Origin: Escherichia phage vB_EcoM_phAPEC6
Length of the DNA: 64,000 nt
Strand: one strand, 5' to 3'
Sequence record: MK817115.1
Under the pieces are notes generated by a model. The model ran no database searches and had not been told where the DNA came from. It saw nothing but the letters and a program-made list of their open reading frames with translations. Position 1 is the first letter of the stretch; each line of letters starts with the position of its first letter. Below are positions 11,933 to 39,458 of the stretch, piece after piece. A program made the translations under genes and the position numbers.

Positions 11933-12517
11933 TCAAGAGTGGTTGCGAAGTTCTACCATTTCTTCCCAAACTAATTGGTAATCTTCTAAGTCCAGATAGA
12001 AGTCTTCATTCCAGTGCTCATGAAAGTACTTATACATGAATAGAACTCCTAAATCGTATGCAGGAAACAATAATGATAGTTGAAAGTAGTATTCCTGATT
12101 TAAAACTATATCAATAAACTCTAATGTACGTATGCCACCTTTCGATGAACGTATCTCAATGTGTGAGGTATCCTTCATACTGTAACACATGAAACCACCT
12201 CTAAATTCTGGATCATATTCACATTCGAACTGCTCACTGTTGTTATAGAAATCTCTCCCACTTTCTTGATCTTTCGGTCTACGTACTGATACATGAATAT
12301 TTTTATCACGGTACATTGAACGATTTAGTATTTTCAAACATTTGAACTTATCTTCTTTAATGAACTTGATAATATCAATTATATCTTGTGCTGTACTGAT
12401 AGCTGATTCGAATGTATCCAACTTAAGATGATTATATTGGGTTCCAGAGTTCATTTTTTTATCTAACATATAAACCTCATAATTCATACATTTTTGATTT
12501 GAACTGCATATGACCAC
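11933..12517 (-). CDS. family A paralog
   Basis: ORF track 194 aa; motif QEYYFQLSLLFP. Confidence 0.7.
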   Translation of the reverse strand: MVICSSNQKCMNYEVYMLDKKMNSGTQYNHLKLDTFESAISTAQDIIDIIKFIKEDKFKCLKILNRSMYRDKNIHVSVRRPKDQESGRDFYNNSEQFECEYDPEFRGGFMCYSMKDTSHIEIRSSKGGIRTLEFIDIVLNQEYYFQLSLLFPAYDLGVLFMYKYFHEHWNEDFYLDLEDYQLVWEEMVELRNHS

Positions 12518-12818
12518 CTATTTCACATGGATAACAATTCATAATTTTGTTCAATAGAATCTGGTATTTTTTAATAACTTCTATATCAATTTTTATATTA
12601 CTATTAAAAACTAATGATTCTTGAAATAATTCCCCCTCGTCAAGTGAAGTAAAATCATTTATCTTCAAGGGTATATTGTTGCATCGCAAGGAGAATGTAT
12701 TTTCATCACGAATTAAAGTATAGAAATCATTATGTTTTTTATTATAATCAAATTTAACAAGTAGTAGTTTAATATGAGTAGCGTACATTACTTTAACTAA
12801 TTCAGATTCACGTCGCAT
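12477..12818 (-). CDS. family A paralog
   Basis: ORF track 113 aa; motif EGELFQESLVFN. Confidence 0.7.
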   Translation of the reverse strand: MRRESELVKVMYATHIKLLLVKFDYNKKHNDFYTLIRDENTFSLRCNNIPLKINDFTSLDEGELFQESLVFNSNIKIDIEVIKKYQILLNKIMNCYPCEIGGHMQFKSKMYEL

Positions 12819-13240
12819 ACAATACCTCTCTTATGATGCAAACATTCTTGCATAATGTGTTGTATTTTTCGTAACAGAAACACATCCAGTTCATTAAAAA
12901 CAGTACTGTACTGGAACATCTCTTCTTCCCCGTACTCAGTTAAATCATCAATTTCATCTCTAGAAACAGCTACAATATTAAAACCACGTGTACTACAATA
13001 ACCCTTAGTAAGATAATATATGTACTTGTACTCTCCGTTGATATCTAAGAGATCTTGTGTGATACAGAAGCTTTTGGGTGACAGTTTATCATCAGGAACC
13101 ATATGCCTTGCTTGTACATAGCAACGGATACCATCACCTATACTATATGTAATAACTTCAAATTCAATCTTCATAGGTGAATATAATCCTTTTATATTGC
13201 TCAGGTGCAGTACTGAAACGTTTGATTGGATAATTATCAA
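12797..13240 (-). CDS. family A paralog
   Basis: ORF track 147 aa; motif EEEMFQYSTVFN. Confidence 0.7.
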   Translation of the reverse strand: MIIIQSNVSVLHLSNIKGLYSPMKIEFEVITYSIGDGIRCYVQARHMVPDDKLSPKSFCITQDLLDINGEYKYIYYLTKGYCSTRGFNIVAVSRDEIDDLTEYGEEEMFQYSTVFNELDVFLLRKIQHIMQECLHHKRGIVCDVNLN

Positions 13241-13526
13241 AGATTCTTTTCATTTCTTTCTGGATTAAACATAAGAAATCAAAGTTACAATCGTACTTAT
13301 TATCCCATACTAAACTTTCTTGGAATAACTCATCCTCTTGCATTAGTGTAGTGTCAATTACATCTTCACGGACATAGCTATATACTTCATAGCTCTTGAA
13401 GCCATCTTCTGATAATTCTAATTCATATGCAGCCATATCAAACATATCATCATGGTTTGTCTTCAAAGATATTAAACAAGTAACTAATTTTTTAGTTGTA
13501 TAGTATGTAATACTTAATGTGTTCAT
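13164..13526 (-). CDS. family A paralog
   Basis: ORF track 120 aa; motif EDELFQESLVWD. Confidence 0.7.
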   Translation of the reverse strand: MNTLSITYYTTKKLVTCLISLKTNHDDMFDMAAYELELSEDGFKSYEVYSYVREDVIDTTLMQEDELFQESLVWDNKYDCNFDFLCLIQKEMKRIFDNYPIKRFSTAPEQYKRIIFTYED

Positions 13527-13531
13527 TTGTT

Positions 13532-14134
13532 TTATACCTCAGTATATAGCTTACAATAGCTTTCATCGAAATTACAAACACTTCTCAAGTACTGACACAG
13601 GTCATTGAAAATATTTACATTTGATATATATACATTATCAAATTCTGTTCGTTGAAAGAATGTATACATAGAATTTGTAATATATCGCATTGCATCTTCA
13701 CGTCCCATAGTTATATCATTTGTGAACATTGCATCTTCATCAGTACTGATGTGTTCTATTTTAAATGATTTCATAAATGGAATACTCTTTCCTAGGGCAT
13801 AACCATCACCATATGATGCTTCTACTGCACCTTTGGAATAAAGGAATTGATATAAGTCCGAATCACGATTATAAAAAGTACGACATACGGAGGAACATAA
13901 TTTATTATCTATATGAAATAAAAATCTTTTAGCATTTTTGTCTAATACTATTCGCAATGCATCACTCTCTAGAAATATATCACCATCAAGCATAAATGAG
14001 AACTGTACTAATGCTTTTTCTAAATCCGCTCGTTTGTGATAAATCATTTCCTGCATATATATAATATCATTTGCTAATTTCTTAAAAAACAAATGCACAT
14101 CTGCACTACAACATTTATTTGCATTTATTGACAT
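13532..14134 (-). CDS. hypothetical protein, possibly divergent family A
   Basis: ORF track 200 aa; weak motif EDAMFTNDITMG. Confidence 0.55.
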   Translation of the reverse strand: MSINANKCCSADVHLFFKKLANDIIYMQEMIYHKRADLEKALVQFSFMLDGDIFLESDALRIVLDKNAKRFLFHIDNKLCSSVCRTFYNRDSDLYQFLYSKGAVEASYGDGYALGKSIPFMKSFKIEHISTDEDAMFTNDITMGREDAMRYITNSMYTFFQRTEFDNVYISNVNIFNDLCQYLRSVCNFDESYCKLYTEV

Positions 14135-16327: not shown

Positions 16328-16641
16328 TATATTTCTATCTCAATGTAATCCTGTGTGATTAAGTAATCCCAATGATACTTCACCTGCTTTTGTAATTCAA
16401 TTAACGTAAAGAAGTTGATCGATTTATCCCATACGAGCGATTCCTGGAAAATAAATGATTCATGTTCATCGTAATAATCACACTCTAAAAAATCAGGTAT
16501 ATATTCACTATCGTGAATGTATTCAACAAACGAACTAGCTTGGCATTTCTTTACTACTAGTAATAATGAATTATCATGATCAAACAGATACAATAAACTA
16601 ATTTCACCAGGGACGTACTGAACACTGAATAAGTTTTTCAT
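16327..16641 (-). CDS. family A paralog
   Basis: ORF track 104 aa; motif ESFIFQESLVWD. Confidence 0.7.
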   Translation of the reverse strand: MKNLFSVQYVPGEISLLYLFDHDNSLLLVVKKCQASSFVEYIHDSEYIPDFLECDYYDEHESFIFQESLVWDKSINFFTLIELQKQVKYHWDYLITQDYIEIEI

Positions 16642-17090
16642 TCTATACCTTCTGGATCTTTACGAAGTTCTTCGAAATCCAAATAAAATCGAGGACAGTT
16701 AACACTCTTTAAATACCACATAATAACTAATGCTTCAAGTACTTCATCATCGTAAACAGTACTGTTTTGGAAGTAATACTCTTCACTATCCCACGGACCA
16801 TCCAGTACTTCATAATTCAAAATTAATGGTTTTTTGCGATTAATAAAACGAATGCTACCATTTTCAACATAACTAATAAATTCTGCATCTCTATTGTATT
16901 CAGAAAACGATATAGGACTATTGGAATTCAACCCAAGAATAACCCTTACACCAACGGAGTTATTATACATTTCATCTTTGTAGTAGTTGCCGTTCTCGGC
17001 TTTGTACACTTCTTTGAACTTTCCTGCCTTTATATCGTCAAAGTATCCATGTAGTTCTTTTGCTTTTTCAAGAGCACTTTGTAATGACAT
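16638..17090 (-). CDS. family A paralog, MSLQSALEKAK subfamily
   Basis: ORF track 150 aa; N-term MSLQSALEKAK, motif GPWDSEEYYFQNSTVYD. Confidence 0.75.
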   Translation of the reverse strand: MSLQSALEKAKELHGYFDDIKAGKFKEVYKAENGNYYKDEMYNNSVGVRVILGLNSNSPISFSEYNRDAEFISYVENGSIRFINRKKPLILNYEVLDGPWDSEEYYFQNSTVYDDEVLEALVIMWYLKSVNCPRFYLDFEELRKDPEGIE

Positions 17091-17556
17091 TACCTTCTCC
17101 TACAGTATTCTCTACATATTCATAATCAAAATAGAAACTACTGGAGTCAATACTTTTGAAATACCACATAATCACAATAACATCCAGTTCTTCTTCATTG
17201 TACAACGTACTATTCTGGAAGTAATACTCTTCACTATCCCACGGACCTTCTAGTACTGAATAAGGAATGATAGTGTCATCAGCATCACTATCTGTGTTGT
17301 AGATGGTAATATCTTCATTACGGCAATAACTAATGTACTGATTGTACATATGATATTCACAGTTATCACTGTCACCAGTATCAGTGTGCAGTACTAATGT
17401 TTCTGCACATATCTCGGACTCGTCATAATCGTCACGGTCTTTTACAAAAAATTCAGTATCAGATGTTTTATATACACCTGGAACTGAACCTTCTTGTACC
17501 ATAATCATATACTCATGAATCTTCTTTGCTTCTTTCAATGCACTTTGTAACGACAT
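17068..17556 (-). CDS. family A paralog, MSLQSALEKAK subfamily
   Basis: ORF track 162 aa; N-term MSLQSALKEAK, motif GPWDSEEYYFQNSTLYN. Confidence 0.75.
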   Translation of the reverse strand: MSLQSALKEAKKIHEYMIMVQEGSVPGVYKTSDTEFFVKDRDDYDESEICAETLVLHTDTGDSDNCEYHMYNQYISYCRNEDITIYNTDSDADDTIIPYSVLEGPWDSEEYYFQNSTLYNEEELDVIVIMWYFKSIDSSSFYFDYEYVENTVGEGNVITKCS

Positions 17557-17999
17557 TACAAATCCCCTGAACTTAAATATTCACATGCTCCCCAGTCAAG
17601 AAAGAATGGTTCAAAATTCAATTCCTTAAAGTACCACAACACAACCAAGGAATCAAGCATTTCTTGGTTAAAAATGAAACTCTGTTGGAAGTAATACTCT
17701 TCAGTACCCCACGGGCCATCAAGTACCCCGAAGTCAACAGGTGCATTTGATGTGTCAAACGTAATCTTAGTACCTGGAATATATACAAAAAAACTAGTAT
17801 ATTGACTACATGAAGAGTACTGTATAGTATTGTCTTTATCCTGTCCCATAAGTAAAATATCATCAGAGTATGTCTTTATACCTGATAGATAATACTCATC
17901 ACCAAATGCACTTACTTTATCACCATAGAACCCACTTTTTATGTTATCGTGGAAGTGATGTATTCTGTGTGCTAGTTCAAGTGCACTTGCTAAACTCAT
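17556..17999 (-). CDS. family A paralog, MSLQSALEKAK subfamily
   Basis: ORF track 147 aa; N-term MSLASALELAH, motif GPWGTEEYYFQQSFIFN. Confidence 0.75.
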   Translation of the reverse strand: MSLASALELAHRIHHFHDNIKSGFYGDKVSAFGDEYYLSGIKTYSDDILLMGQDKDNTIQYSSCSQYTSFFVYIPGTKITFDTSNAPVDFGVLDGPWGTEEYYFQQSFIFNQEMLDSLVVLWYFKELNFEPFFLDWGACEYLSSGDL

Positions 18000-18466
18000 A
18001 TATCCTCTTTAATAACTCGTAGTAGATCCAAGTCCAAATAGAAGCTAGGACAATCTGTATTATTAAAGTACCACAGAATGACAAGCTTGTCAAGTACATC
18101 TTCCTCGTAGATAGTATTCTGCTGGAAGTAGTACTCTTCACTTCCCCAGTCATTATCCAGTACTGAATACGGAAGATGTTTCTCTGCTGCACCAGATATA
18201 ATGTCAGAATCTTGTATTAAAATATCAGCATCACGACAGAAGTACATGTAATTATCTTCCAAATTAACATCACACCCATTGAGTGTTGTTTCAGAAGAAT
18301 CTAAGTTTTCTTCATACATGTGAATGTACTCACTACTGTCATCGTATCTCATTCGACAATAAGATTTACCTTCCTTGAATAGATATCCATTGAGACAATT
18401 TGCTACAATTTCTTTGCTGCATAAATCAATTAACTTCGCAATCTCTAATGCTCTTTCTAAACTCAT
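17996..18466 (-). CDS. family A paralog, MSLQSALEKAK subfamily
   Basis: ORF track 156 aa; N-term MSLERALEIAK, motif NDWGSEEYYFQQNTIYE. Confidence 0.75.
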   Translation of the reverse strand: MSLERALEIAKLIDLCSKEIVANCLNGYLFKEGKSYCRMRYDDSSEYIHMYEENLDSSETTLNGCDVNLEDNYMYFCRDADILIQDSDIISGAAEKHLPYSVLDNDWGSEEYYFQQNTIYEEDVLDKLVILWYFNNTDCPSFYLDLDLLRVIKEDI

Positions 18467-18467
18467 T

Positions 18468-18959
18468 TTAACCCCTGTTAATACCGTTATCTACAGTTTT
18501 CTTTACGTATTTGTAATCGAAATAGAAGTTCCCAGAACCAATACTTTTAAAGTACCACATAATTATAATAACATCAAGTACTTCATTATCGTATACAGTA
18601 CTTTGTTGGAAGTAATACTCTTCACTATCCCACGGACCTTCCAGTACTTCACTCGGAATTATAATGTCATCGGAATCGCTATCAGTACTGTAGATGGTAT
18701 CTGTATCATTAATATAGACCATGTACTCATTATGCATATTAATGAAGCATTCATAATCATTAGGGTCGGTATCCAGTACACACGTTTCTGTATCCAGTAC
18801 GCACGTTTCTGTATCTGAGCAGTCATTATAAAGGAGGTTATCCGGTACATAATATTGAGTACTTGTGTCTTTGAAAACACCGTAAACTGAACCTTCTTTT
18901 GCCATATTCATGTACTCATGAATCTTCTTTGCTTTTTCCAATGAACTCTGTAATGTCAT
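18468..18959 (-). CDS. family A paralog, MSLQSALEKAK subfamily
   Basis: ORF track 163 aa; N-term MTLQSSLEKAK, motif GPWDSEEYYFQQSTVYD; contains in-frame 21-nt tandem duplication (ETCVLDT x2). Confidence 0.75.
   Translation of the reverse strand: MTLQSSLEKAKKIHEYMNMAKEGSVYGVFKDTSTQYYVPDNLLYNDCSDTETCVLDTETCVLDTDPNDYECFINMHNEYMVYINDTDTIYSTDSDSDDIIIPSEVLEGPWDSEEYYFQQSTVYDNEVLDVIIIMWYFKSIGSGNFYFDYKYVKKTVDNGINRG
18771..18812 (-). repeat. 21-bp perfect-frame tandem duplication inside CDS
   Basis: gtatccagtacacacgtttct / gtatccagtacgcacgtttct adjacent copies; encodes ETCVLDT twice. Confidence 0.7.
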
Positions 18960-18968
18960 TTTATAATC

Positions 18969-19328
18969 TCATATATTGAAATAATAATTATTCGTTCTTG
19001 ATGGGGATGGATTAAATACGTTTTCTTTTTCAAATCTCTTCATTTCATTTTGCAAAGAAACCATTTCTTCAAATGTACAGGAGTACTTATTCTTATCAAA
19101 CACTAATGCAGCCTGAAATAGTTCACCATCGTCCAGTACTGTATAATCTATAAGACTCTCAGATTCATAGTCATAGTCGTCATGTGATACATGAATAAAT
19201 TTAAAACAAGAATCTTTGTAATGCATATATAAACTCAACTCATGTTCCGAGTCGCCCTTAATAAGATTACAGCACAAGTCCCATCCTTTAGGTAACTTAT
19301 AATAGTACATAGAATAATCATATGTCAT
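18969..19328 (-). CDS. family A paralog
   Basis: ORF track 119 aa; motif DDGELFQAALVFDKNKYSCTFEEM. Confidence 0.7.
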   Translation of the reverse strand: MTYDYSMYYYKLPKGWDLCCNLIKGDSEHELSLYMHYKDSCFKFIHVSHDDYDYESESLIDYTVLDDGELFQAALVFDKNKYSCTFEEMVSLQNEMKRFEKENVFNPSPSRTNNYYFNI

Positions 19329-19681
19329 TCTTGAATTCCTAAATTGAATTTGTATTCTTGATTAATACTTGCATTGGGTTTATGCAAAGCAGCATACTCT
19401 TTCATTTCATTTTGTATTGCAATAACTTCTTCAAATGTACACAAGTACTTCTTATCAAATACTAATGATTCTTGGAATAGTTCTGCGGTATCCATTAATG
19501 TATAGTCCGGCATATCTTGGTGTGGATACTGTAATGAACTGTAATCAATGAATGTAAATTTACCCTGAGTGTAATGAATATACTCATTTGCACTGTGCAT
19601 TAAATCACCTTTGTTTAAATTACAAAAGTACTGATAACTGTGCTTGAAAGTATGTACTGATATTAAAAAATCAAATTCCAT
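19325..19681 (-). CDS. family A paralog
   Basis: ORF track 118 aa; motif DTAELFQESLVFDKKYLCTFEEV. Confidence 0.7.
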   Translation of the reverse strand: MEFDFLISVHTFKHSYQYFCNLNKGDLMHSANEYIHYTQGKFTFIDYSSLQYPHQDMPDYTLMDTAELFQESLVFDKKYLCTFEEVIAIQNEMKEYAALHKPNASINQEYKFNLGIQE

Positions 19682-20052
19682 CAGTACTCAACCTCTACAT
19701 AAATAGATTCAGGAAACTTAGTCATATAATCTTCTGGATAGTTCTGCATTACTTTGATCATTTCTGCCTGTGTAGCACGGACGTATTCAATTGGTGCTCC
19801 TGGTAAATTCCAGACAGTACTTTCCTGAAAGAATTCCTCTTCTGACAGTACTGTCAGATTTACAAAATCATTACGGTAATTTTTTGAATCATCATATGTG
19901 AAGATTTTAAAAGACCCATTTTCATATAGTACAAGAACAAAATGGGAGAATTTTTGTAATGCACCACCAAGGCTTTCCACGACCGCATGATTCAGTGTAC
20001 AGATGACCTCTTTTTTCCTCATACCGAATTGAATTCTAATTTCTTTTTTCAT
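19681..20052 (-). CDS. family A paralog
   Basis: ORF track 123 aa; motif EEEFFQESTVWN. Confidence 0.7.
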   Translation of the reverse strand: MKKEIRIQFGMRKKEVICTLNHAVVESLGGALQKFSHFVLVLYENGSFKIFTYDDSKNYRNDFVNLTVLSEEEFFQESTVWNLPGAPIEYVRATQAEMIKVMQNYPEDYMTKFPESIYVEVEY

Positions 20053-20210
20053 AAAATCTCCTTCAGATTAGTACTGAATTTGTACAGAATATTAGAACTG
20101 TATACAGCCTCTGTATCTGTATCCATAATCAAATCACCTTTGTTTAAATTACAAAAGTACTGATAACTGTGCTTAAAAGAATGTACTGATATTAAAAAAT
20201 CAAATTCCAT
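20049..20210 (-). pseudogene. truncated duplicate of the 5' end of gene 19325..19681 (family A remnant)
   Basis: approx. 80 bp at 20132-20211 nearly identical to 19603-19682 including start codon; resulting 53-aa ORF begins MEFDFLISVHSFKHSYQYFCNLNKGDL then diverges. Confidence 0.4.
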
Positions 20211-20587
20211 CACTCTTCCCCTAGATTGAAATGATTACAAAAATCATCTTCACCAGTACTGCACCAGATATCTATACATTCCCTGTGAATACATTTAATT
20301 CTACGCTGTAATTCAATCATCTCTTCTAATGTACAGATGTACTTCTTATCAAATACTAATGCCGCCTGAAACAGTGCAGCATCATCAAGTACTGTATAGT
20401 CCAACATCTCGGTTGCTTTACCCCTAAACCCAGTACTAAAATCCATCAAATAAAAGTCAGCATTCCAGTACTTTAAAATCTTGTCCCTAGCGTAGTTTAA
20501 ATCACCCTTGTATAAGTTAGAGTGCGTAACTAACTCACCAGTGTACATCCATGTCCTTGCACAAAATTCATTATATTTTATTTCCAT
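20210..20587 (-). CDS. family A paralog
   Basis: ORF track 20210..20695; motif DDAALFQAALVFDKKYICTLEEM; start moved to internal Met MEIKYNEF because upstream extension reads through intergenic sequence. Confidence 0.6.
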   Translation of the reverse strand: MEIKYNEFCARTWMYTGELVTHSNLYKGDLNYARDKILKYWNADFYLMDFSTGFRGKATEMLDYTVLDDAALFQAALVFDKKYICTLEEMIELQRRIKCIHRECIDIWCSTGEDDFCNHFNLGEE

Positions 20588-20783
20588 CTTAATCTCTACT
20601 ATAATTAATAAGGTAAACTCCAATATAAGGAGCACGTTGCGGGGGCGGGGTATTTTTTGTTTCAGGAAACATGAACTGTACTCTGAAAAACACAATATAA
20701 AACTTTATATTAAACATATACCTTAGCATGTTTTTCAGCGGAAATTTTTTTGACCCCCTGCGGCCTGTCAAAACGAAACGTCT

Positions 20784-21008
20784 CTATTTATTCAGCCTAG
20801 AAACCTTGATTTCTTCAATCCTTTTCATTGCACAAAGCCTTCGACTCGTCCTCTCGTATATATTCAATACTCGCTGTAATGCATTATCTGTATTATCTGC
20901 AACTGCAATCTGAACCAAATATGTATCCTTCAAAATAGAATCCATCATGAATTCAAAACCTTTCACACTAAAGCAATATGCCACTTCCGGCTCTTCAAAC
21001 GTAATCAT
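20784..21008 (-). CDS. hypothetical protein (74 aa)
   Basis: ORF track. Confidence 0.45.
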   Translation of the reverse strand: MITFEEPEVAYCFSVKGFEFMMDSILKDTYLVQIAVADNTDNALQRVLNIYERTSRRLCAMKRIEEIKVSRLNK

Positions 21009-21198
21009 AATTCCAATCCCCTATTCCCTCTAACCTTCTAAGATATCTTGCGTAAATTATTTCGAAATATCTGTGCAACGAAATTACGGATTGCTCATAA
21101 TCATCATTCCTGTACATTGTGCATGTCAGAAAATCATTTAACCCAAAATCTAAACTGCACTTGAACTTCTCCTTAGCAACATCTCTAAAATTATTCAT
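20995..21198 (-). CDS. hypothetical protein (67 aa)
   Basis: ORF track. Confidence 0.45.
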   Translation of the reverse strand: MNNFRDVAKEKFKCSLDFGLNDFLTCTMYRNDDYEQSVISLHRYFEIIYARYLRRLEGIGDWNYDYV

Positions 21199-29408: not shown

Positions 29409-29658
29409 ATTTCTCTTTATTAGCTTGTTTGGTTTTATAGTGAATTAAATCTATTAATGTAATCAAGTACAACGTCAAATAGTACTCTTGTTGATCTGTA
29501 CCTAATGATACAAAGAACTTGTGCTCATAGATTAAAACCTGTTTCTCTTCAAATGGACATTTAATCCTCTGTATAGGCTTAAGTAAATGATAGTACTTAT
29601 TAAATCTATGATACATTTCTAGTTCTGTCAGTACTTTCATATTAAACACATACTCCAT
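29398..29658 (-). CDS. family B paralog
   Basis: ORF track 86 aa; motif SLGTDQQEYYLTLYL. Confidence 0.6.
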   Translation of the reverse strand: MEYVFNMKVLTELEMYHRFNKYYHLLKPIQRIKCPFEEKQVLIYEHKFFVSLGTDQQEYYLTLYLITLIDLIHYKTKQANKEKYEN

Positions 29659-29863
29659 TAGCAGTAGCAGTACTTAAAGCACTCAAATACCTCTGTACGG
29701 CTTGCTCTTGATGATCTGTACCTAAAAGTATATACACCCATAATTCATTGTAGTGTACATCTTCTGTATAAGGGTTGTTGTAACTTTTTGATAATATAGC
29801 ATCAAATTCAGATGCATAATCCCTTGTGAACTTAAACATATCTTGTTGTGTTATGATTCTCAT
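29642..29863 (-). CDS. family B paralog
   Basis: ORF track 73 aa; motif LLGTDHQEQAVQRYL. Confidence 0.65.
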   Translation of the reverse strand: MRIITQQDMFKFTRDYASEFDAILSKSYNNPYTEDVHYNELWVYILLGTDHQEQAVQRYLSALSTATANGVCV

Positions 29864-30075
29864 AACTTTTCCTGTATAAGCTTCTTAAGTATTTCTATGT
29901 GTGAATTAACAGTTCTTTCTTGATGCTGTGTTCCTAAGAGTGTCAGTACTATCATCTCTGAACGCAAAAGATTTTTTTCAAGTTCACTTATATCAGTTCT
30001 TGAATCAAGTGCCATATATTTGTGATTATTCTTCCTGAATAGTGCCAAGTACTCTTGATTTGATATTTCCTTCAT
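29860..30075 (-). CDS. family B paralog
   Basis: ORF track 71 aa; motif LLGTQHQERTVNSHI. Confidence 0.65.
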   Translation of the reverse strand: MKEISNQEYLALFRKNNHKYMALDSRTDISELEKNLLRSEMIVLTLLGTQHQERTVNSHIEILKKLIQEKL

Positions 30076-30302
30076 AGTTTATTCCTGATGCCATTTAAAA
30101 GTGCTCTAATATGCTCATTGACAAATCGCTCTTGGGAATCTGTTCCTAGAGTGAGTAGCAATCTTAAATCTGAACTTTTGATGTGATATTCTAAATCATT
30201 CTTTGATTCTTGCATCAGTTTCTTAAAGGATGAGAAGTTTGCAGCCATTAGTTCAATGTATTCTGCTGTTCCTAGGGGTTTGTGTGTGTGCTGTCTGTGC
30301 AT
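30072..30302 (-). CDS. family B paralog
   Basis: ORF track 76 aa; motif TLGTDSQERFVNEHI. Confidence 0.65.
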   Translation of the reverse strand: MHRQHTHKPLGTAEYIELMAANFSSFKKLMQESKNDLEYHIKSSDLRLLLTLGTDSQERFVNEHIRALLNGIRNKL

Positions 30303-30514
30303 TTTAATTGTATTACCCTTTTGAGTGTATTAATGTAATTATACACATTGGCTTCTTGATAGTTTGTTCCTAGAGTAGCTTGAACGTAGATTTCATTTAA
30401 CTTAATAATTTTATCAGAATCTGGAAGTTTTGATGTGTTAATGGCAAATAACTTCGAAAACAGTCCATTTATGATTGTTAGGTATTCTACTTCGGTAATG
30501 ATTCGCATTTGCAT
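30272..30514 (-). CDS. family B paralog
   Basis: ORF track 80 aa; motif TLGTNYQEANVYNYI. Confidence 0.65.
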   Translation of the reverse strand: MQMRIITEVEYLTIINGLFSKLFAINTSKLPDSDKIIKLNEIYVQATLGTNYQEANVYNYINTLKRVIQLKCTDSTHTNP

Positions 30515-30726
30515 TGGATAAACCTTTTTAGTTCATTGATGTAATCATTAATATTGCATTCTTGATAGTTAGTCCCTAGTGTAGCTTGAACATAGATTTC
30601 ACTTACTAGAATACTTATTTCATCATCTGGTAATTTCATGCTTTTTGTTATAAACAGCTTTAGAATTAAACTACTTAATAGTTGGTTGTATTCTGTGGGT
30701 GAAATGATTTTCATTTGCATTTGCAT
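30487..30726 (-). CDS. family B paralog
   Basis: ORF track 79 aa; motif TLGTNYQECNINDYI. Confidence 0.65.
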   Translation of the reverse strand: MQMQMKIISPTEYNQLLSSLILKLFITKSMKLPDDEISILVSEIYVQATLGTNYQECNINDYINELKRFIQCKCESLPK

Positions 30727-30932
30727 TTTCTCAGTACTGATTCTTTAAGTTCATTAATGTAGCACTCTACATATTCTTCTTGTAGGTTTGTTCCGATATG
30801 TAACAGTACTCTTAAATCTGCTCTCAGTACTTCTTTATCATCTTCATCTATATCAGACAGTGTTATGTTTAAGAATTTACTTGAACTCTCTATAAGTAAT
30901 ATTACTGAATCACCTTTGCTTAAAATTTTCAT
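30711..30932 (-). CDS. family B paralog
   Basis: ORF track 73 aa; motif HIGTNLQEEYVECYI. Confidence 0.65.
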   Translation of the reverse strand: MKILSKGDSVILLIESSSKFLNITLSDIDEDDKEVLRADLRVLLHIGTNLQEEYVECYINELKESVLRKCKCK

Positions 30933-31140
30933 AATCTCTTTTTGCTTTCCTCGCCAAAAGGTACATATACGATTCTTCGTATTGTGCTTGGTAGTTTGTG
31001 TTTAAGAGTCGAAACAACTTCTGTTCTGCTAGAACGAGTTGCTTATCTTCATAACAACGATAGCGTATCAACTTTTTGTATTCGATGTTGATTACATCCA
31101 TTACTATAAGCCCATGTTCATCATCTGTCAAGTGTTTCAT
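30910..31140 (-). CDS. family B paralog
   Basis: ORF track 76 aa; motif LLNTNYQAQYEESYM. Confidence 0.6.
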   Translation of the reverse strand: MKHLTDDEHGLIVMDVINIEYKKLIRYRCYEDKQLVLAEQKLFRLLNTNYQAQYEESYMYLLARKAKRDYENFKQR

Positions 31141-31379
31141 GCATTTTTTCTTTTTCTTATATGTTTAGTTAAAAGGTATATTAGTTTTCTATTGTATTCT
31201 TCCTGATAGTTTGTTCCTAATAGTGCAAGAAGTTTTGCTTCAACTAAAGCTAATTGACGTTCTTCAAATGTGTGTTCCAGTATGTACTTGGGGTTTGATT
31301 TTTTAGCGTAAGCACTATTAGTCTTCATTACAATCTTATGATATTCATTAGCAGTTAGGATTTTTAAATACTTGATCAT
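31137..31379 (-). CDS. family B paralog
   Basis: ORF track 80 aa; motif LLGTNYQEEYNRKLI. Confidence 0.65.
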   Translation of the reverse strand: MIKYLKILTANEYHKIVMKTNSAYAKKSNPKYILEHTFEERQLALVEAKLLALLGTNYQEEYNRKLIYLLTKHIRKRKNA

Positions 31380-31599
31380 GTATCTTTTCCTTTATAGAGA
31401 ATTTAAGATATCGAAGCATACTTTCAATGTAATACTCTTGTCTGTCAGTGCCAAGAAAGTACATGAGTTGAATGTATAAAACTTCTGCACTCCTTTCCGC
31501 TGGAGACTTGTTTGTGTCGTTTGGAAGTTGATTTGTATGTTTTCTTGATTTAATTAGTCGTTCTTTTAACTCATCGTCTGTTAAGTATTTCATTTGCAT
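31348..31599 (-). CDS. family B paralog
   Basis: ORF track 83 aa; motif FLGTDRQEYYIESML. Confidence 0.65.
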   Translation of the reverse strand: MQMKYLTDDELKERLIKSRKHTNQLPNDTNKSPAERSAEVLYIQLMYFLGTDRQEYYIESMLRYLKFSIKEKIHDQVFKNPNC

Positions 31600-31825
31600 T
31601 TACTTTTTCCTTAATAGTGATTTTAAGATATCTAATCATACGTGCAACATATTCCTCTTGTCTATCAGTTCCCAGAAGATATGGTAGTGATTGGAATAAT
31701 ACTTCTGCACTCCTTTCTGCTGGGGTTTGGTTTAGGTCAATTGGACGTTTATTGGTATATCTCTTGGCACGAACTAATCTCTCGACGTATTCATTATAGG
31801 TTAAGTATATCATTTCATTTTGCAT
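31571..31825 (-). CDS. family B paralog
   Basis: ORF track 84 aa; motif LLGTDRQEEYVARMI. Confidence 0.65.
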   Translation of the reverse strand: MQNEMIYLTYNEYVERLVRAKRYTNKRPIDLNQTPAERSAEVLFQSLPYLLGTDRQEEYVARMIRYLKITIKEKVNANEILNRR

Positions 31826-32045
31826 TTACTTTTTCCTTAATACTCATTATAAGATGTTCAATCATATTTTGAACCATAAATTCTTGTTTATCAGTTCCAA
31901 GAACGTATGGTAGCTTCTGAAACAATACATTTGCAGATACTTCAGATATTGATTGATTTGGACCGAACTTAAGAGTAATGTTTTTGGTTTTTAACATCTT
32001 CTCTTGAAATTCTTCATTCGTTAAGTATATCATTTCATTTTGCAT
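31815..32045 (-). CDS. family B paralog
   Basis: ORF track 76 aa; motif VLGTDKQEFMVQNMI. Confidence 0.65.
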   Translation of the reverse strand: MQNEMIYLTNEEFQEKMLKTKNITLKFGPNQSISEVSANVLFQKLPYVLGTDKQEFMVQNMIEHLIMSIKEKVNAK

Positions 32046-32261
32046 TTACATTCTCTCATATATATTTTGGGTTAAAAGGTCAATCCAGATTTCCACATAT
32101 CGTTGTTGGTGTTGCGTCCCTAACAGTACACCCAACTTAGCTTCACACTCTAATAACAATCTGGTTTTGTATGGTAGACTTTGGAATCCTATAGTAGCAT
32201 CTAATTTGGTAATTGCATAGTTGATTCGGATGAATCTTTCTTGCAATGTGATGTTGATCAT
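32046..32261 (-). CDS. family B paralog
   Basis: ORF track 71 aa; motif LLGTQHQQRYVEIWI. Confidence 0.65.
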   Translation of the reverse strand: MINITLQERFIRINYAITKLDATIGFQSLPYKTRLLLECEAKLGVLLGTQHQQRYVEIWIDLLTQNIYERM

Positions 32262-32548
32262 TTCTTAGTACACCTCAGTGGTTGGGTCATTTGATGAAAG
32301 TACAGCTTACCTCTGATTTCCAGTAGCAACTCCGCGATTAAGCGATTTACTTCTGTATCTTGATAGTTTGTTCCTAAGAATACACCCATCTTTAACTCAC
32401 GCATCATAATCATTTTCTTACTGTGTTGAATTTCTGGGTTGTGATAGATTGTATTACGTTTGTGCGTAATTTTTGTCATACGCTCGGTATATTCATCTTT
32501 ACTTAAATTGATCATTTGCATGTTCATCAACCTCACATTTATTTTCAA
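32258..32548 (-). CDS. family B paralog
   Basis: ORF track 96 aa; motif FLGTNYQDTEVNRLI. Confidence 0.65.
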   Translation of the reverse strand: MKINVRLMNMQMINLSKDEYTERMTKITHKRNTIYHNPEIQHSKKMIMMRELKMGVFLGTNYQDTEVNRLIAELLLEIRGKLYFHQMTQPLRCTKK

Positions 32549-32550
32549 TA

Positions 32551-32817
32551 CTATTCTTTAGTTTGTAGATATAGTTTTCTTCCAATATATCTCTTAAGTG
32601 CGATTATGTATTCATCTACATAATACTCCTGATAGTTTGTTCCTATGAATGCACCCACCTTTAACTCAAGTTTCATAATCATCTTATTTCCGTGTTTAAT
32701 GACTTCTCCGTGATGGATTTCATTAAGTCCAGGTGCAATTTTTACCAGGCGTTCTTTATATTTTGCTTGAGATAATTTAATCATTTTCATGTTAATTACC
32801 CTTACATTTATTTTCAA
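32551..32817 (-). CDS. family B paralog
   Basis: ORF track 88 aa; motif FIGTNYQEYYVDEYI. Confidence 0.65.
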   Translation of the reverse strand: MKINVRVINMKMIKLSQAKYKERLVKIAPGLNEIHHGEVIKHGNKMIMKLELKVGAFIGTNYQEYYVDEYIIALKRYIGRKLYLQTKE

Positions 32818-33022
32818 TACTATTCATGAGTTCTATAAGATAGTTTTCTACCTTACCTTCCTGATAGTTAGTCCCTAGGAAGTTGCACAACACGGCTTCT
32901 ATGATTTTGATTTTCCTGATATCAGGCTTCAATCTTTTGTTATTGAATATTTGAATCCTTATATCTCTGGATGCATTTAAACGTTTTTGATATTCATGGT
33001 AAGTTAAATTAATCATTTTCAT
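32792..33022 (-). CDS. family B paralog
   Basis: ORF track 76 aa; motif FLGTNYQEGKVENYL. Confidence 0.65.
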   Translation of the reverse strand: MKMINLTYHEYQKRLNASRDIRIQIFNNKRLKPDIRKIKIIEAVLCNFLGTNYQEGKVENYLIELMNSIENKCKGN

Positions 33023-33237
33023 TTACGTTTAACCTCTCGCTGGAGGGCATCAATTAACATCAGTACAGCATTCTCTTGATAGTTTGTTCCTAAGACTGAA
33101 AGCATCTTTATCTCATTTACTAAAATCAACTTCTTTGAGGGTTCAATAATGTGACTATCATAAACGGCCTTACGTGCTGGATAAGTTTTCGCCAGTATAA
33201 CATAAAATTCGTCTTTACTTAAATTAATCATTTGCAT
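33019..33237 (-). CDS. family B paralog
   Basis: ORF track 72 aa; motif VLGTNYQENAVLMLI. Confidence 0.65.
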   Translation of the reverse strand: MQMINLSKDEFYVILAKTYPARKAVYDSHIIEPSKKLILVNEIKMLSVLGTNYQENAVLMLIDALQREVKRK

Positions 33238-33446
33238 TTACTTTTAACCTCTTTCTGTAGAGCGTCAATCCATAGATCCACATACATTTGTTGATAGTTT
33301 GTGCCTAAGAGTGCACCTACATAGAGTTCAGTTACTAGTGCGTGCTTAAGGTTAGCTTGGATGCTCTTATCGCTTGATAAGATTTTCCTTCTGCTGGTGC
33401 ATGTTTTCAGGAGTCTGATGTATTCAAAGCCTTGTAAATTTCTCAT
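33228..33446 (-). CDS. family B paralog
   Basis: ORF track 72 aa; motif LLGTNYQQMYVDLWI. Confidence 0.65.
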   Translation of the reverse strand: MRNLQGFEYIRLLKTCTSRRKILSSDKSIQANLKHALVTELYVGALLGTNYQQMYVDLWIDALQKEVKSKCK

Positions 33447-33658
33447 ATTTTGGATACCACCTTGTTACGTAAGGCACTTAACAATACGTCAGTGTAGATG
33501 TTTTGATAGTTTGTCCCTACGAAAGCACCCAACTTCATTTCAGCTATTATAACACATTTGTCCTCTTGTGCAATAGATTTGTTTAACACAATACTATACA
33601 CTTTTGATTTGATAGTTTGTAACCTCCAATGATACTGAAACTCATTTAGTGTTATCAT
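33443..33658 (-). CDS. family B paralog
   Basis: ORF track 71 aa; motif FVGTNYQNIYTDVLL. Confidence 0.65.
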   Translation of the reverse strand: MITLNEFQYHWRLQTIKSKVYSIVLNKSIAQEDKCVIIAEMKLGAFVGTNYQNIYTDVLLSALRNKVVSKI

Positions 33659-36124: not shown

Positions 36125-36526
36125 TTACAGTCCTAAGATAGTGCGTGCTTCGTTACGTTCCGTACACAGCTGCATGATGTGAGCAAGTAAGTCCTTGCTA
36201 ATGTATCCGTTGTCCATAGCTTCACGGATAGATACATCATAAGCACCGAACCCCGTGCGAACGATACGCACATCATTCAGGTTAGTATTATAGATACCGC
36301 CGAGATCAACGGCTTCGAATACTACATCAACAGAATATTCATTGTTGCCATCGTGGAAGTTTTCCAGTGCAATAGTATTGGATACCGCCCAACGTTTGCA
36401 GTTTCCAATGATGCGGCACTGTTCCGGTTGGATAGTGCCATTACTTACAGCGTACTCCAGTGCATCTTTACCGAAAGTCCGAGCCAGTACTAAAACGTCA
36501 GCGAAGGAATTGATTGAGAAGGTCAT
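36125..36526 (-). CDS. hypothetical protein (~133 aa)
   Basis: ORF track 36125..36559; start moved to MTFSINSF Met behind SD AAGGAG; track N-terminal extension translates the promoter hairpin. Confidence 0.6.
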   Translation of the reverse strand: MTFSINSFADVLVLARTFGKDALEYAVSNGTIQPEQCRIIGNCKRWAVSNTIALENFHDGNNEYSVDVVFEAVDLGGIYNTNLNDVRIVRTGFGAYDVSIREAMDNGYISKDLLAHIMQLCTERNEARTILGL

Positions 36527-36547
36527 GATAAAACTCCTTAATTTAGG

Positions 36548-36612
36548 AGGGAGAACCATTTCCCCCTCTCTATGTAAAACATTATACTTGATTCTAAGTA
36601 CTATGCAAGTAC
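36548..36612 (-). promoter_or_regulatory. early-type promoter + 5' GC hairpin cassette (PeSL-like)
   Basis: minus-strand TTGCAT-N16-TATAAT followed by hairpin around GGGAGAACCATTTCCCCC, then SD and ATG. Confidence 0.55.
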
Positions 36613-36615
36613 TTT

Positions 36616-36948
36616 TTACATTTTAATACCTGGATTCAGGTAGCGGTGAGATCCATATTCTGGATCGGTTTCGGTCCAGTACTGTAAATCTATAGTACCT
36701 TTAGCGTTAATCTTGTCTACCAGCTTATTCATCTTAGCGTATACTACATCAGCATCGATGCGTTTAAAGCCAGTAGCTTTAGTGAAGTAGTAGTGATTTG
36801 CTTCACTATCATTAAGGATATACCGAGCACCGTTTGCAGTCTGTGCGATAATGATTGAGTATTCTACTTCCCGATCCAGACCGTCGATGAATACAGATGA
36901 AACATTGGTACGGATGAAAGCTTTAACGATAGCGATTGAAGTACTCAT
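36616..36948 (-). CDS. hypothetical protein (110 aa)
   Basis: ORF track; SD AGGAG; own promoter TTGACA-N17-AATAAT upstream. Confidence 0.65.
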   Translation of the reverse strand: MSTSIAIVKAFIRTNVSSVFIDGLDREVEYSIIIAQTANGARYILNDSEANHYYFTKATGFKRIDADVVYAKMNKLVDKINAKGTIDLQYWTETDPEYGSHRYLNPGIKM

Positions 36949-37153
36949 TTTGAATCTCCTAACTTTGTGGGCCGTCGCACCATTGCCGCCCTACGAGATA
37001 CATTATTGCAGTACTGATATACTTTGTCAATACTTTTTTATTAATAGTTTTAGTTCCACCAGCAGATAGTTACTCACCGTTATTAACTATATATTTTGGA
37101 TACACTCCTGCACCCAGTGGGCTAGTTTTTGTCTATGCGTATATAATAGCAAA

Positions 37154-37181
37154 GGGACTGACCGGAGTCAATCCCTTTTTT
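37154..37181. terminator. intrinsic terminator hairpin (conserved repeat-element copy 1)
   Basis: GGGACTGAC-cgga-GTCAATCCC followed by TTTTTT on plus; A-run on other side (bidirectional potential). Confidence 0.45.
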
Positions 37182-37192
37182 ATTCTTTTTTG

Positions 37193-37393
37193 TTAGATGA
37201 TTCTCCAATCTTCTACGATCATGGTAAGATAACGGACCATCGATTCAAGTGATTCGAATTCCCGATAGTCTGCCGCTCCACCAGCGGTACAAGTACAGCC
37301 GATTAAACCATTTTGCAATTCCTTAATCTGTACATCGATAAGGTTGGCTTTAGCTTCTTTCAGTACTTCAACCAGGGCGATAGCGATAGACAT
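37193..37393 (-). CDS. hypothetical protein (66 aa)
   Basis: ORF track; SD GGAGT. Confidence 0.6.
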   Translation of the reverse strand: MSIAIALVEVLKEAKANLIDVQIKELQNGLIGCTCTAGGAADYREFESLESMVRYLTMIVEDWRII

Positions 37394-37415
37394 AATGTTT
37401 TACTCCAAACTATTA

Positions 37416-37476
37416 GCGGGAGAACTATTCCCCCGCTCTATGTAAAACATTATACATTACTGGTTAGTACTGTCAA
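37416..37476 (-). promoter_or_regulatory. early-type promoter + 5' GC hairpin cassette (PeSL-like)
   Basis: TTGACA-N16-TATAAT then hairpin GCGGGAGAACTATTCCCCCGC. Confidence 0.55.
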
Positions 37477-37483
37477 ATAGTTT

Positions 37484-37741
37484 TTATGAAATATCTTCGA
37501 TGTAGTCGGCCCATTTCATTTTTTCAGTACTGTCAATGGCTACCGGATTATTTGGATCAAACCATTCACCATTACCGCAGTACATACCAACGGCTACGGT
37601 TTTATAGCCATCCTGGGCCGTACTCCACGACATTGCACGATAGATATGGCCTTTAACTGGTTGCAGTACTGGTAATGTTTTATGGTCTTCTACGTAGGCC
37701 ATAGCTTGAGGATTTACCCGATATTGTGTGAACTGTTCCAT
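37484..37741 (-). CDS. hypothetical protein (85 aa)
   Basis: ORF track; SD AAGGGGA; promoter TTGACA-N17-TGTAAT upstream. Confidence 0.6.
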   Translation of the reverse strand: MEQFTQYRVNPQAMAYVEDHKTLPVLQPVKGHIYRAMSWSTAQDGYKTVAVGMYCGNGEWFDPNNPVAIDSTEKMKWADYIEDIS

Positions 37742-37817
37742 TATGTTTCCCCTTGTAGTTAGTAAAGTTATTACATCAGTACTATCAAGCTATGTCAATA
37801 GTACTGAAATAAAACTT

Positions 37818-38042
37818 TTAGATTAGATTATTGATGCCTGAAATGGTAGACTCACTTTCTTCTTTCTCCCATTGGCGGTAGTACTTCCACGCTTCATGAT
37901 AGGTGGCGATCAGTTCATCTTTTTGATCCTGAGTACATGCCAGTACTGAATCACTGTAAGCGGTGTTATAGATAGAATCGAATGATTTCTTCTCTTCTGC
38001 CAGGTTAGCTACTTCCCGCATCAGTTCATCAAAGTTAGCCAT
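37818..38042 (-). CDS. hypothetical protein (~74 aa)
   Basis: ORF track 37818..38087; start moved to MANFDEL Met downstream of hairpin. Confidence 0.55.
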   Translation of the reverse strand: MANFDELMREVANLAEEKKSFDSIYNTAYSDSVLACTQDQKDELIATYHEAWKYYRQWEKEESESTISGINNLI

Positions 38043-38061
38043 TTTAGTACTCCTTATTAGT

Positions 38062-38120
38062 GGGGGAGGATATCTCCCCCTATGCAAAACATTATACTTT
38101 GTTTTAGTTATTATGCAAGT
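38062..38120 (-). promoter_or_regulatory. early-type promoter + 5' GC hairpin cassette (PeSL-like)
   Basis: TTGCAT-N16-TATAAT then perfect hairpin GGGGGAG-gatat-CTCCCCC. Confidence 0.55.
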
Positions 38121-38374
38121 ACTTTTTTCATATAAACATTAAATTCTACACCGCCGTAACCTTCTACGATGATATGTTTTGCGTTATCACGTTTGCACAT
38201 AGTGAAACCGTTGTTGATGTGTTCTGCATTTTCCAGGGCGACATCACCGATAGCGGCACATACGGCACTAATAACAGTATTCCGCAAAGTACTGGTATCA
38301 TTAGCGGTCATAGTAGTTTGCAGTACTACGTTGTCGTATACGTGTGCATTGATAGTGATTTCGATAGTGTTCAT
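38111..38374 (-). CDS. hypothetical protein (87 aa)
   Basis: ORF track; SD AGGAG. Confidence 0.6.
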   Translation of the reverse strand: MNTIEITINAHVYDNVVLQTTMTANDTSTLRNTVISAVCAAIGDVALENAEHINNGFTMCKRDNAKHIIVEGYGGVEFNVYMKKVLA

Positions 38375-38391
38375 GGTGTATCTCCTGCACA

Positions 38392-38455
38392 GTCGGGAGA
38401 ACTATTCCCCCGCTCTATGTAAAACATTATACGTTAATCTAACTACAATGCAAGT
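38392..38455 (-). promoter_or_regulatory. early-type promoter + 5' GC hairpin cassette (PeSL-like)
   Basis: TTGCAT..TATAAT then hairpin GAGCGGG..CCCGCTC. Confidence 0.55.
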
Positions 38456-38460
38456 ACTTT

Positions 38461-38652
38461 TTAAATTTTATTTCCGATATAGTCCGGTCTATTCTTTTCG
38501 GTCATACGCTTTGCTAATGTTTGCATATGGCTTATTGCGTTTAATGTGTCTTCCTCCAGGGATGAATCAACATAATCAGGATCATTCTTCACCTTGCAAT
38601 GATTATGATAGCGTAGTACTGCCAGTACTTTTTTAACTTCTTCTACTGTCAT
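38461..38652 (-). CDS. hypothetical protein (63 aa)
   Basis: ORF track; start overlaps stop of upstream gene. Confidence 0.55.
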   Translation of the reverse strand: MTVEEVKKVLAVLRYHNHCKVKNDPDYVDSSLEEDTLNAISHMQTLAKRMTEKNRPDYIGNKI

Positions 38653-38921
38653 AATAAGTACCCCACTTCGTTAGCTTTCAGGTTAGTATCAATCATCAGT
38701 GGATTTTTGTAGTTCACAAAACGATTAGTTTTCTCGATAGCGAATCCCATATAATCCAGCTTACTAACAGTACATTCATTCTTAAAAACTTCTTTCGCTG
38801 CATTGATGGCTGATTCAATTGATAACCGACCATCTAAGTTAATGTTTCCAAATGATCCACCAGCAGAAGTAGGATTACCGTTCATATCTTTAATGATCAT
38901 AGTAGCGGAGTAGCTAGACAT
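38649..38921 (-). CDS. hypothetical protein (90 aa)
   Basis: ORF track; SD AAGGAA. Confidence 0.6.
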   Translation of the reverse strand: MSSYSATMIIKDMNGNPTSAGGSFGNINLDGRLSIESAINAAKEVFKNECTVSKLDYMGFAIEKTNRFVNYKNPLMIDTNLKANEVGYLL

Positions 38922-38943
38922 AATTTTGTTTCCTTTTAGTATC

Positions 38944-39002
38944 GGGGAGAACTATTCTCCCCTTGATGTAAACTATTATACAGTACTAAGATACTTTGTC
39001 AA
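38944..39002 (-). promoter_or_regulatory. early-type promoter + 5' GC hairpin cassette (PeSL-like)
   Basis: TTGACA-N16-TATAAT then hairpin GGGGAGAA-cta-TTCTCCCC. Confidence 0.55.
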
Positions 39003-39005
39003 TAC

Positions 39006-39227: not shown

Positions 39228-39247
39228 GATTTTATTCCTTATTGCCA

Positions 39248-39450: not shown

Positions 39451-39458
39451 AATCTTTT

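Follow-up and report, generated by a model that had tools for sequence, protein, structure and literature searches.

In tailed phages, illegitimate recombination produces mosaic 'novel joints' of the Hendrix type, as known from lambdoid phages and mycobacteriophages. In the rII region of T4, duplications and deletions arise at microhomologies of a few bases. The duplications are unstable and are resolved by homologous recombination between the repeats, and headful packaging tolerates small changes in genome size. In T4-type phages, PeSL shuffling has been described: non-essential early genes have short direct repeats on either side, and these repeats drive gene gain, gene loss and the formation of mini-circles (Arbiol et al. 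2010, PMC2839356; PMC4122927). This PeSL-mediated modular shuffling is the closest described system to the locus analysed here.

In this study, we analysed a 64,000-nt stretch of the genome of Escherichia phage vB_EcoM_phAPEC6 (MK817115.1; hereafter the window). It contains a 53-aa ORF that is, in all likelihood, a recombination scar, left when a segment related to genes A4_364 and A4_365 of phage A4 was joined before a 118-aa gene. As in PeSL shuffling, small non-essential early genes of hyperplastic regions are gained, lost or exchanged among related phages through homologous recombination at flanking short direct repeats, and the repeat-flanked unit, here 529 bp, could in principle leave as a small circle and re-insert. 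Unlike the PeSL repeats, which are dispersed promoter/stem-loop cassettes and are absent at the 529-bp unit, the repeats here are coding sequence, 82 nt from the 5' end of the 118-aa gene, and their duplication was apparently made by the insertion itself. The locus resembles mosaic novel joints in that ancestry switches within a few bases at a microhomology, the parental sequences are found in other phages and the product is viable. It differs from them in that the joint lies within two coding sequences and gives an in-frame chimera and an 82-nt duplication, not a clean gene boundary. The T4 rII rearrangements were laboratory events in one genome, whereas here a natural population has both states and the insert comes from another locus or lineage. 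Both illegitimate and homologous recombination are textbook sources of phage mosaicism, and the locus holds no conceptual novelty; it is an ordinary but unusually well documented junction. It gives a base-pair-level view of gene-content change in jumbo-phage arrays of small early genes. Microhomology splicing, repeat-mediated loss and spread, and unequal crossover between paralogs are all seen in one 2-kb stretch across about 32 genomes, and the spliced gene can be traced to another part of the array or another lineage.

The window belongs to an Asteriusvirus (121Q/PBECO4-type) jumbo coliphage and is 99% identical to EC22.5-2, BF17 and G17 and 93% identical to 121Q. All genes of the array region lie on the minus strand and are densely packed with stop/start codon overlaps. 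In gene direction, a 125-aa gene is followed by the 53-aa ORF, a 123-aa gene, the 118-aa gene and a 119-aa gene (Table 1). Between 0.7 and 29.4 kb of the window, some 40 ORFs on the minus strand have a [DE]EE.[FY]FQ.S.[VI].D motif in common, and F69, Q70 and V74 are invariant in the family alignment. A PHROGs search with the 53-aa ORF and its neighbours returned only phrog_15629 and phrog_13866, both without an assigned function. A Pfam scan of the same proteins and of A4_364 gave no match at or near the gathering score, and a BFVD search with the AlphaFold2 model matched uncharacterised proteins of Rak2-like jumbo phages only. A literature search returned no account of this gene family and no Asteriusvirus transcriptome. 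A promoter and terminator scan of positions 18900-21100 stayed at or below chance and placed nothing at the repeats. PeSL-like cassettes occur elsewhere in the window (36-55 kb), not at the 529-bp unit.

Table 1. Positions in the window of the 53-aa ORF, its parts and joints, and the related genes
Feature	Position	Strand	Remark
125-aa paralog (phrog_15629)	20210..20587	-	Upstream of the 53-aa ORF; directly before the 118-aa gene where the unit is absent
Repeat copy B	20131..20212	-	TGA of the 125-aa gene, overlapping ATG and the 27 118-type codons heading the 53-aa ORF
Chimeric 53-aa ORF	20049..20210	-	118-type N-terminus fused in frame to A4_364-type C-terminus; ATG at 20210, TGA at 20049
Left joint, microhomology GATTT	20131..20135	-	118 codons 26-27 (GDL) / A4_364 codons ~144-145 (QDL)
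Tail of the 53-aa ORF (3' end of A4_364-type gene)	20049..20130	-	blastn and alignment with A4_364
Secondary in-frame 63-nt deletion site	20084..20096	-	Relative to 121Q gene 366 and A4_364
A4-type patch (364 tail and 365-type gene)	19684..20130	.	Ectopic, between the repeat copies
123-aa gene (phrog_13866)	19681..20052	-	Cargo of the unit; 93.5% aa identity to A4_365
Right joint, microhomology TGATGGA (7 nt)	19677..19683	-	Stop/start overlap common to A4_365/366 and 125/118
Repeat copy A	19602..19683	-	TGA of the 123-aa gene, overlapping ATG and first 27 codons of the 118-aa gene
Intact 118-aa gene (phrog_15629)	19325..19681	-	Source of the duplicated start
119-aa gene (phrog_15629)	18969..19328	-	PHROGs
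Positional counterparts of A4_364 and A4_365	13164..14134	-	200 aa and 120 aa; 24-28% identity to those of A4
120-aa gene	13164..13526	-	Positional counterpart within the A4 364-365-366 block
113-aa gene	12477..12818	-	Positional counterpart within the A4 364-365-366 block

A repeat search followed by alignment identified an 85-nt direct repeat (19599-19683 and 20128-20212) with 96% identity, a spacing of 529 nt and a blastn E-value of 4e-35. A pattern search allowing up to three mismatches found its 82-nt core, TGATGG...GGTGATTT, at exactly two sites, copy A with 0 mismatches and copy B with 2. None was found in 100 dinucleotide-preserving shuffles, and none is expected by chance. These results confirm the preliminary description of this DNA, which had reported that about 80 bp at the start of the 118-aa gene recur with two mismatches. 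The repeat begins exactly at TGATG, the overlap of the upstream gene's TGA with the ATG, and ends at codon 27 (KGDL). At the two differing positions, copy B has T33 and T38 instead of A and C. The repeat pair is an outlier in the array, since the remaining paralog pairs are 70-86% identical at most and only in the conserved gene core.

The distribution of the repeat was determined in relatives. Two copies of the 85-mer were present in 11 records (10 genomes), and a single copy in 23 records (22 genomes). In E9.1, PBECO4 and fEgEco12, the window flanks (up to 19683 and from 20128) overlap by one 85-nt copy, and these one-copy genomes equal the window minus 529 bp with otherwise collinear flanks. 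The copy-A variants A33/C38 were found in the one-copy genomes JP4, SP27, UB and ELP-22, and the copy-B variants T33/T38 in the one-copy genomes PBECO4, E9.1 and the SD phages. Variants of either type in one-copy genomes are expected of crossovers at differing points of the repeat, or of allele shuffling by recombination. These results demonstrate that the unit is polymorphic, with one repeat copy in the empty alleles; its horizontal movement is seen in phage Turkey3, described below. Since the direct repeats enclose an insert of gene size that some relatives have and others lack, they might also be regarded as the target-site duplication of a transposon, an insertion sequence or a homing-endonuclease element. 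However, no terminal inverted repeats were found in or near the unit, and the 123-aa and 53-aa products have no transposase, HNH or other Pfam domain. The 82-nt duplication also far exceeds those made by transposases, and the left end of the insert is a gene fragment. A mobile element of this kind is therefore hardly conceivable as the source of the repeats.

The 53-aa ORF encodes MEFDFLISVHSFKHSYQYFCNLNKGDL + IMDTDTEAVYSSNILYKFSTNLKEIL, and its TGA and the start codon of the 123-aa gene overlap in ATGA. It had been noted that the ORF diverges after KGDL and ends at the ATG of the next gene, which is correct. It had also been placed in an intergenic gap, but it abuts both neighbours by stop/start overlaps and carries a CDS annotation in relatives (G17_00559, PSLUR01_00268 and 121Q gene 366). 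The first 27 codons are those of the 118-aa gene, and the last 25 codons are the 3' end of the 192-aa gene A4_364. In the DNA alignment, the remnant follows the 118-aa gene to AAAGGTGATTT and then A4_364 (CAGGATTTGATTATGGAT...) up to the start of the 123-aa gene. When A4_364 was compared with the whole window by blastn, the tail alone matched (20049-20093, 91% identity, E 1.5e-12; 20080-20135, 82% identity, E 2.2e-10). At the equivalent position in 121Q, gene 366 encodes 74 aa (MEFDFLISVHTVKGAPQYLCNLNKGDL-IMDTDTEVVYSSNVLCKEFQNSKMLELLCIADCNILYKFSTNLKEIL), and its tail is identical to A4 at 131 of 149 nt. The C-terminus of A4_364, ...FQQDLIMDVDSAATYSSNVLCKEFQNSKILELLYIADCNILYKFCTHLKEIL (C-terminal reading ...AFQQDLIMDVDSAATYSSNVLCKEFQNSKILELLYIADCNILYKFCTHLKEIL), aligns with 121Q gene 366 beyond KGDL and with the window ORF minus 21 codons. 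The ORF is a chimera of two genes, with breakpoints at both ends of the A4-type segment.

Each parent is represented by only a part of its product. Residues 1-39 of the 53-aa ORF match positions 1-39 of the phrog_15629 profile (hmmscan, E 1.2e-9), and no further PHROGs match was obtained. The N-terminal hairpin of phrog_15629 with its C-N-L-x-K-G-D motif is kept, and 25 of the 27 residues are those of the 118-aa gene. The phrog_15629 core, D-Y-T-x-x-D-x-x-E-L-F-Q-x-x-L-V-F-D, and the C-terminal helices are absent from both the 53-aa and the 74-aa forms, and the 53-aa ORF has no counterparts of F69, Q70 and V74. On the A4_364 side, the C-terminal 47 residues (LIMD...YKF.T.LKEIL) and the ATGA overlap with the 365-type gene are present, the window form lacking 21 internal codons. 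The N-terminal body of A4_364 (about 145 residues, with the ..AFQQ signature) is not in the window, where tblastn matched the tail only (20079-20141). An internally deleted 118-type paralog was also considered, in view of the LMDT/IMDT and YKF..NL resemblance, and was dropped when the contiguous A4_364 match was found. The preliminary description was right to call the ORF a remnant, but it is not merely a truncated paralog, since an A4_364-type 3' end follows KGDL in frame. The 'hypothetical protein' annotated here in at least 10 GenBank genomes is most likely a fusion stub and not a member of the family.

We then compared the sequences at the joints. At the left joint, the 118-aa gene reads GGT GAT TTA and A4_364 reads CAG GAT TTG. 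At the right joint, the homology between the window and A4 ends exactly at TGATGGA. Within the tail, 63 nt (21 codons) are missing from the window form between the short direct repeats TAAT[G/A]TTCTGT, TAATGTTCTGT and TAATATTCTGT; the loss is a secondary in-frame slippage deletion.

The duplicated gene start had been taken as the footprint of unequal recombination between paralogs. In its full form, this explanation holds that unequal homologous crossover of neighbouring paralogs made a local tandem duplication, of which the 118-aa gene copy remains in truncated form. It would account for a gene start duplicated 529 nt upstream, and a crossover between the 125-aa and 118-aa genes is indeed seen in a relative. 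In L021, a fEgEco12-like metagenomic contig whose flanks are 99.6% identical, the two genes are merged into one 125::118 hybrid. Its crossover lies within a 104-nt zone of the conserved core, and the hybrid protein is of full length. Unequal homologous crossover between adjacent paralogs thus does occur in the array, as an event separate from the one at the 53-aa ORF. The two events affected one array and one gene family, and both changed the copy number, but the L021 crossover joined homologous, equivalent positions and left a full-length protein, whereas the joint in the 53-aa ORF is non-homologous and yields a stub. Past codon 27, the homology of the remnant is with the A4_364 3' end and with no 118-type gene. 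The joined positions, codon 27 of the 118-aa gene and codon ~145 of 364, share an identity of 5 nt only. In addition, the gene in between is from a different subfamily (phrog_13866), with a native locus several kb off on the A4 map. Recombination as such is upheld by these results, but an unequal crossover between paralogs is very improbable as the origin of the 53-aa ORF.

The source of the inserted segment was investigated in other phages. The unique 444 nt between the repeats were found in 12 phage records, 11 of them with the same arrangement and the twelfth being phage A4. In A4, the 192-aa gene A4_364 directly precedes A4_365 with an ATGA overlap, and A4_365 is the ortholog of the 123-aa gene of the window. 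Among the phage records, a full-length A4_364-type gene was present in A4 only. A search of 5.8 billion proteins for A4_364 yielded 15 near-identical full-length variants, all from A4-like phages, and a 365-type gene came next in every readable context. The adjacency 364-365-118, as in the parent of a single crossover, was not found in this search. In IMG/VR scans, A4_364 and the 123-aa gene matched nothing except 121Q itself and a single distant contig. A4_364 aligned end to end with the 200-aa gene of the window (13532..14134) at 24% identity (E 2e-6). A4_364 is thus a genuine gene of the superfamily, complete in length and with 15 variants. The tail therefore belongs originally to the 192-aa gene, and the small ORF derives from it.

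A gene-by-gene comparison of the window with 48 kb of A4 showed that the arrays are collinear. A4 has a single 118-like gene (A4_350), and its 364-365-366 block lies about 5.5 kb further along the array. The three window counterparts of this block (200, 120 and 113 aa) are 24-41% identical to the A4 genes. Since the window holds its own diverged counterparts of 364 and 365 at 13164-14134, the patch of about 0.45 kb between the repeats is an extra, ectopic copy of the A4 type. The event had also been proposed as the likely mechanism that builds the array. It did add a gene, but the DNA between the repeats is no duplicate of a neighbour, its A4 locus being those 5.5 kb away. A recent import from the A4 lineage was considered but is not supported: dS between the 123-aa gene and A4_365 was 0.10, not below that of other conserved window/A4 orthologs (0.03-0.44). 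As this value is within the ortholog range, the source need not be a phage of the A4 lineage. The donor could have been an A4-lineage phage present in a mixed infection, or else the native locus of the same lineage, which was later replaced.

In the origin that we consider most probable, a segment of about 0.5 kb, consisting of the last ~47 A4_364-type codons and the 123-aa A4_365-type gene, would have been joined before the 118-aa gene. The joints are GATTT in codons 26-27 of the 118-aa gene and, at the stop/start overlap, TGATGGA. The latter re-enters the recipient 82 nt upstream of the exit point, so that the start of the 118-aa gene is doubled, with one gene left intact and one start fused to a foreign tail. 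The 63-nt slippage deletion would then have shortened the ORF in frame from 74 aa, the older state seen in 121Q, to the 53 aa of the window. The order and number of the events are not reconstructable.

For the molecular route, we infer one of two possibilities. In the first, a template switch or an illegitimate crossover would have taken place twice during a mixed infection; in the second, a duplication would have come first and a deletion after it. In a template switch, replication would leave the recipient at GATTT, copy the 364 tail and the 365-type gene and re-enter at TGATGGA. In the second route, a single genome would undergo a tandem duplication of about 6.5 kb, from the 118-aa gene to the native 365 at TGATGGA. 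A deletion of about 6 kb at GATTT, spanning codon 27 of the 118-aa gene to codon 145 of 364, would follow, and the native 364-365 would be replaced later. This route predicts exactly both observed joints, its distances and gene order agree with the A4 map, and the dS to A4 is not unusually low. It also counts in its favour that T4 forms tandem duplications at short homologies and that headful packaging leads to their trimming. However, an extra step is needed, because the native 364/365 counterparts are only 24-28% identical, and an intermediate with two A4-type 365 copies was absent from 34 records, each of which has one place. The single-genome route is a serious possibility, though an improbable one. 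The double switch or crossover was given about twice the weight of duplication-then-deletion, because the latter needs the native locus to be replaced as well and its intermediates were not seen.

We next considered whether the chimeric ORF is expressed and used. It is probably translated as a by-product, since the native TGATG initiation context of the 125-to-118 junction is kept and the stop lies at the ATGA of the 123-aa gene. We infer that it has no function of its own; of the predicted family fold (AlphaFold2 model, pLDDT 86), it keeps the first beta-hairpin only. Alternatively, it could be a new small gene under selection, acting as a peptide or as a translational bridge from the 125-aa to the 123-aa gene. 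All 10 carrier genomes have the ORF intact, and the fusion and the 63-nt deletion both keep the frame, for which the joint probability by chance is about 1/9; this leaves some room for selection. The retained TGATG start context and ATGA stop/start overlap are in line with such a role. A tail dN/dS of 0.36 would be in line with it as well, but dN/dS of the tail and the head (about 0.36) is uninformative, as fewer than 20 substitutions underlie it, and many of the ~18 accrued in the functional A4 gene. In addition, the superfamily core [DE]EE.[FY]FQ..L[VI].D is missing, leaving only that first beta-hairpin. Coupling is not needed, as a strong AAGGAG Shine-Dalgarno sequence lies 7 nt upstream of the start codon of the 123-aa gene. 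The 121Q copy shows clustered amino-acid changes, and 22 genomes live without the unit. Selection for a new function is therefore quite unlikely.

The repeats also affect the later fate of the unit. As direct repeats, the 82-85-nt copies allow homologous recombination, between each other or with a one-copy genome, to remove or install the unit, and the same exchanges hold both copies nearly identical. A more far-reaching and doubtful proposal is that the 529-bp unit is a self-propagating cassette, in which the copy of the 118 5' end serves as a portable homology arm beside the cargo. If so, the unit could enter any Asteriusvirus with a 118-type gene, by double crossover or as a mini-circle, and could leave as easily. 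The frame of the 53-aa ORF would have been kept because ribosome flow from the 125-aa gene to the cargo is thereby preserved, and the unit would be a coding-sequence analogue of PeSL shuffling.

Transfer of the unit was examined in phage Turkey3. Its unit is 100% identical to that of the window over the 444 nt, with 0 differences from ~19650 to 20150, whereas its flanks show 4-13 differences per 50 nt to the window on a background that is 10-20% diverged. fEgEco12, which is near-isogenic to Turkey3 (flanks 99.1% and 98.3% identical), does not have the unit, and three more members of the Turkey3 lineage, TH47, ph0011 and vB_Ec-M-J, have one repeat copy each. Copy B of Turkey3 carries the resident (fEgEco12-type) variants A42 and T49. 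Copy A is of the window or donor type at positions 33-49 and of the resident type at G83. Because these patterns switch within the copies, the exchange points lie inside the repeats. As read from these variants, the Turkey3 unit is an import by homologous recombination and the sole gain or loss with a proven direction. Transfers of this kind make both copies alike, which can explain why the copies are 96-98% identical in most carriers and only about 85% identical in 121Q. The differences in copy B of 121Q are clustered in codons 11-17, a segment that is also variable among 118 orthologs. The ~85% copies of 121Q are more readily explained by two differing alleles of the 118-aa gene than by a recent target duplication, and a later allele exchange must be invoked.

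A fusion of the two consecutive phrog_15629 genes, which encode proteins of 125 and 118 aa, was found in one relative, and a possible fusion in another (Table). In the metagenomic contig L021, from a fEgEco12-like phage, a single hybrid gene matches the 125-aa gene exactly over its 5' two-thirds and the 118-aa gene exactly over its 3' third. This hybrid is the product of an unequal homologous crossover in which one gene equivalent was lost. In phage UE-S1, an additional A immediately ahead of the TGATG stop/start overlap places the stop out of frame, and the two genes are annotated as one. The single CDS reflects either fusion by read-through or a sequencing error at a homopolymer.

Gene content also differs between relatives in the adjacent phrog_9317 run. 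The 163-aa gene of this run is replaced by two shorter genes in the related phages Turkey3 and fEgEco12. In vB_Ec-M-J, just two phrog_15629-type genes are present here (118 and 125), and the position of the 119-aa gene is empty.

The sole sizeable non-coding gap close to the gene-start repeat and its 53-aa scar ORF lies at 20588-20783. It contains a promoter-like site and a C/G-rich tract, CCCCGCCCCCG, and is variable between relatives.

The ORFs at 700-29400 that share a common motif form a very large paralog superfamily. No matches to this superfamily were found in Pfam, and no convincing fold relative was found in the PDB; Rak2-like jumbo phages were the sole source of its structural relatives.

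A repeated intergenic cassette was found at 36500-55400. Read in minus-strand order, TTGCAAGTACT-N17-TATAATGTTTTACAT precedes a hairpin of high GC content (GGGGAGAA...TTCTCCCC) as well as a ribosome-binding site. These cassettes are similar to ones known from T4-type phages, the promoter/stem-loop (PeSL) cassettes. Two more sets of paralogs or repeats, diverged and in tandem, were observed at 29600-33600 and 56400-59900.

Features at the locus, in the window and in related phages (window positions unless a contig or locus is named)
Feature	Position	Strand	Description
Hybrid gene, protein P0032	L021 4001-4330		Logan SRR27732228 contig, fEgEco12-like phage
UES1_321, phage UE-S1	L017 1026-1754		242-aa CDS; 125-aa and 118-aa genes as one
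phrog_9317 paralogs	16638-18959		five in tandem, 147-163 aa, spacing 437-484 nt
Promoter-like site	20771-20744	minus	TTGACA-N16-AAAAAT, inside gap 20588-20783
Tandem ORFs	700-29400	minus	~40, 100-210 aa each; motif [DE]EE.[FY]FQ.S.[VI].D
Intergenic cassette	36500-55400		~90 nt, ~20 copies, e.g. 46479-46565, 50887-50973
Imperfect repeats	54868-55019		8-nt period, CGTCTAGC-like units, in a non-coding stretch
Genes of 70-85 aa	one of the sets at 29600-33600 and 56400-59900		common ...CTTGATAGTTTGTTCCTA segment
Repeats of 66-245 nt	56.4-59.8 kb		the other set
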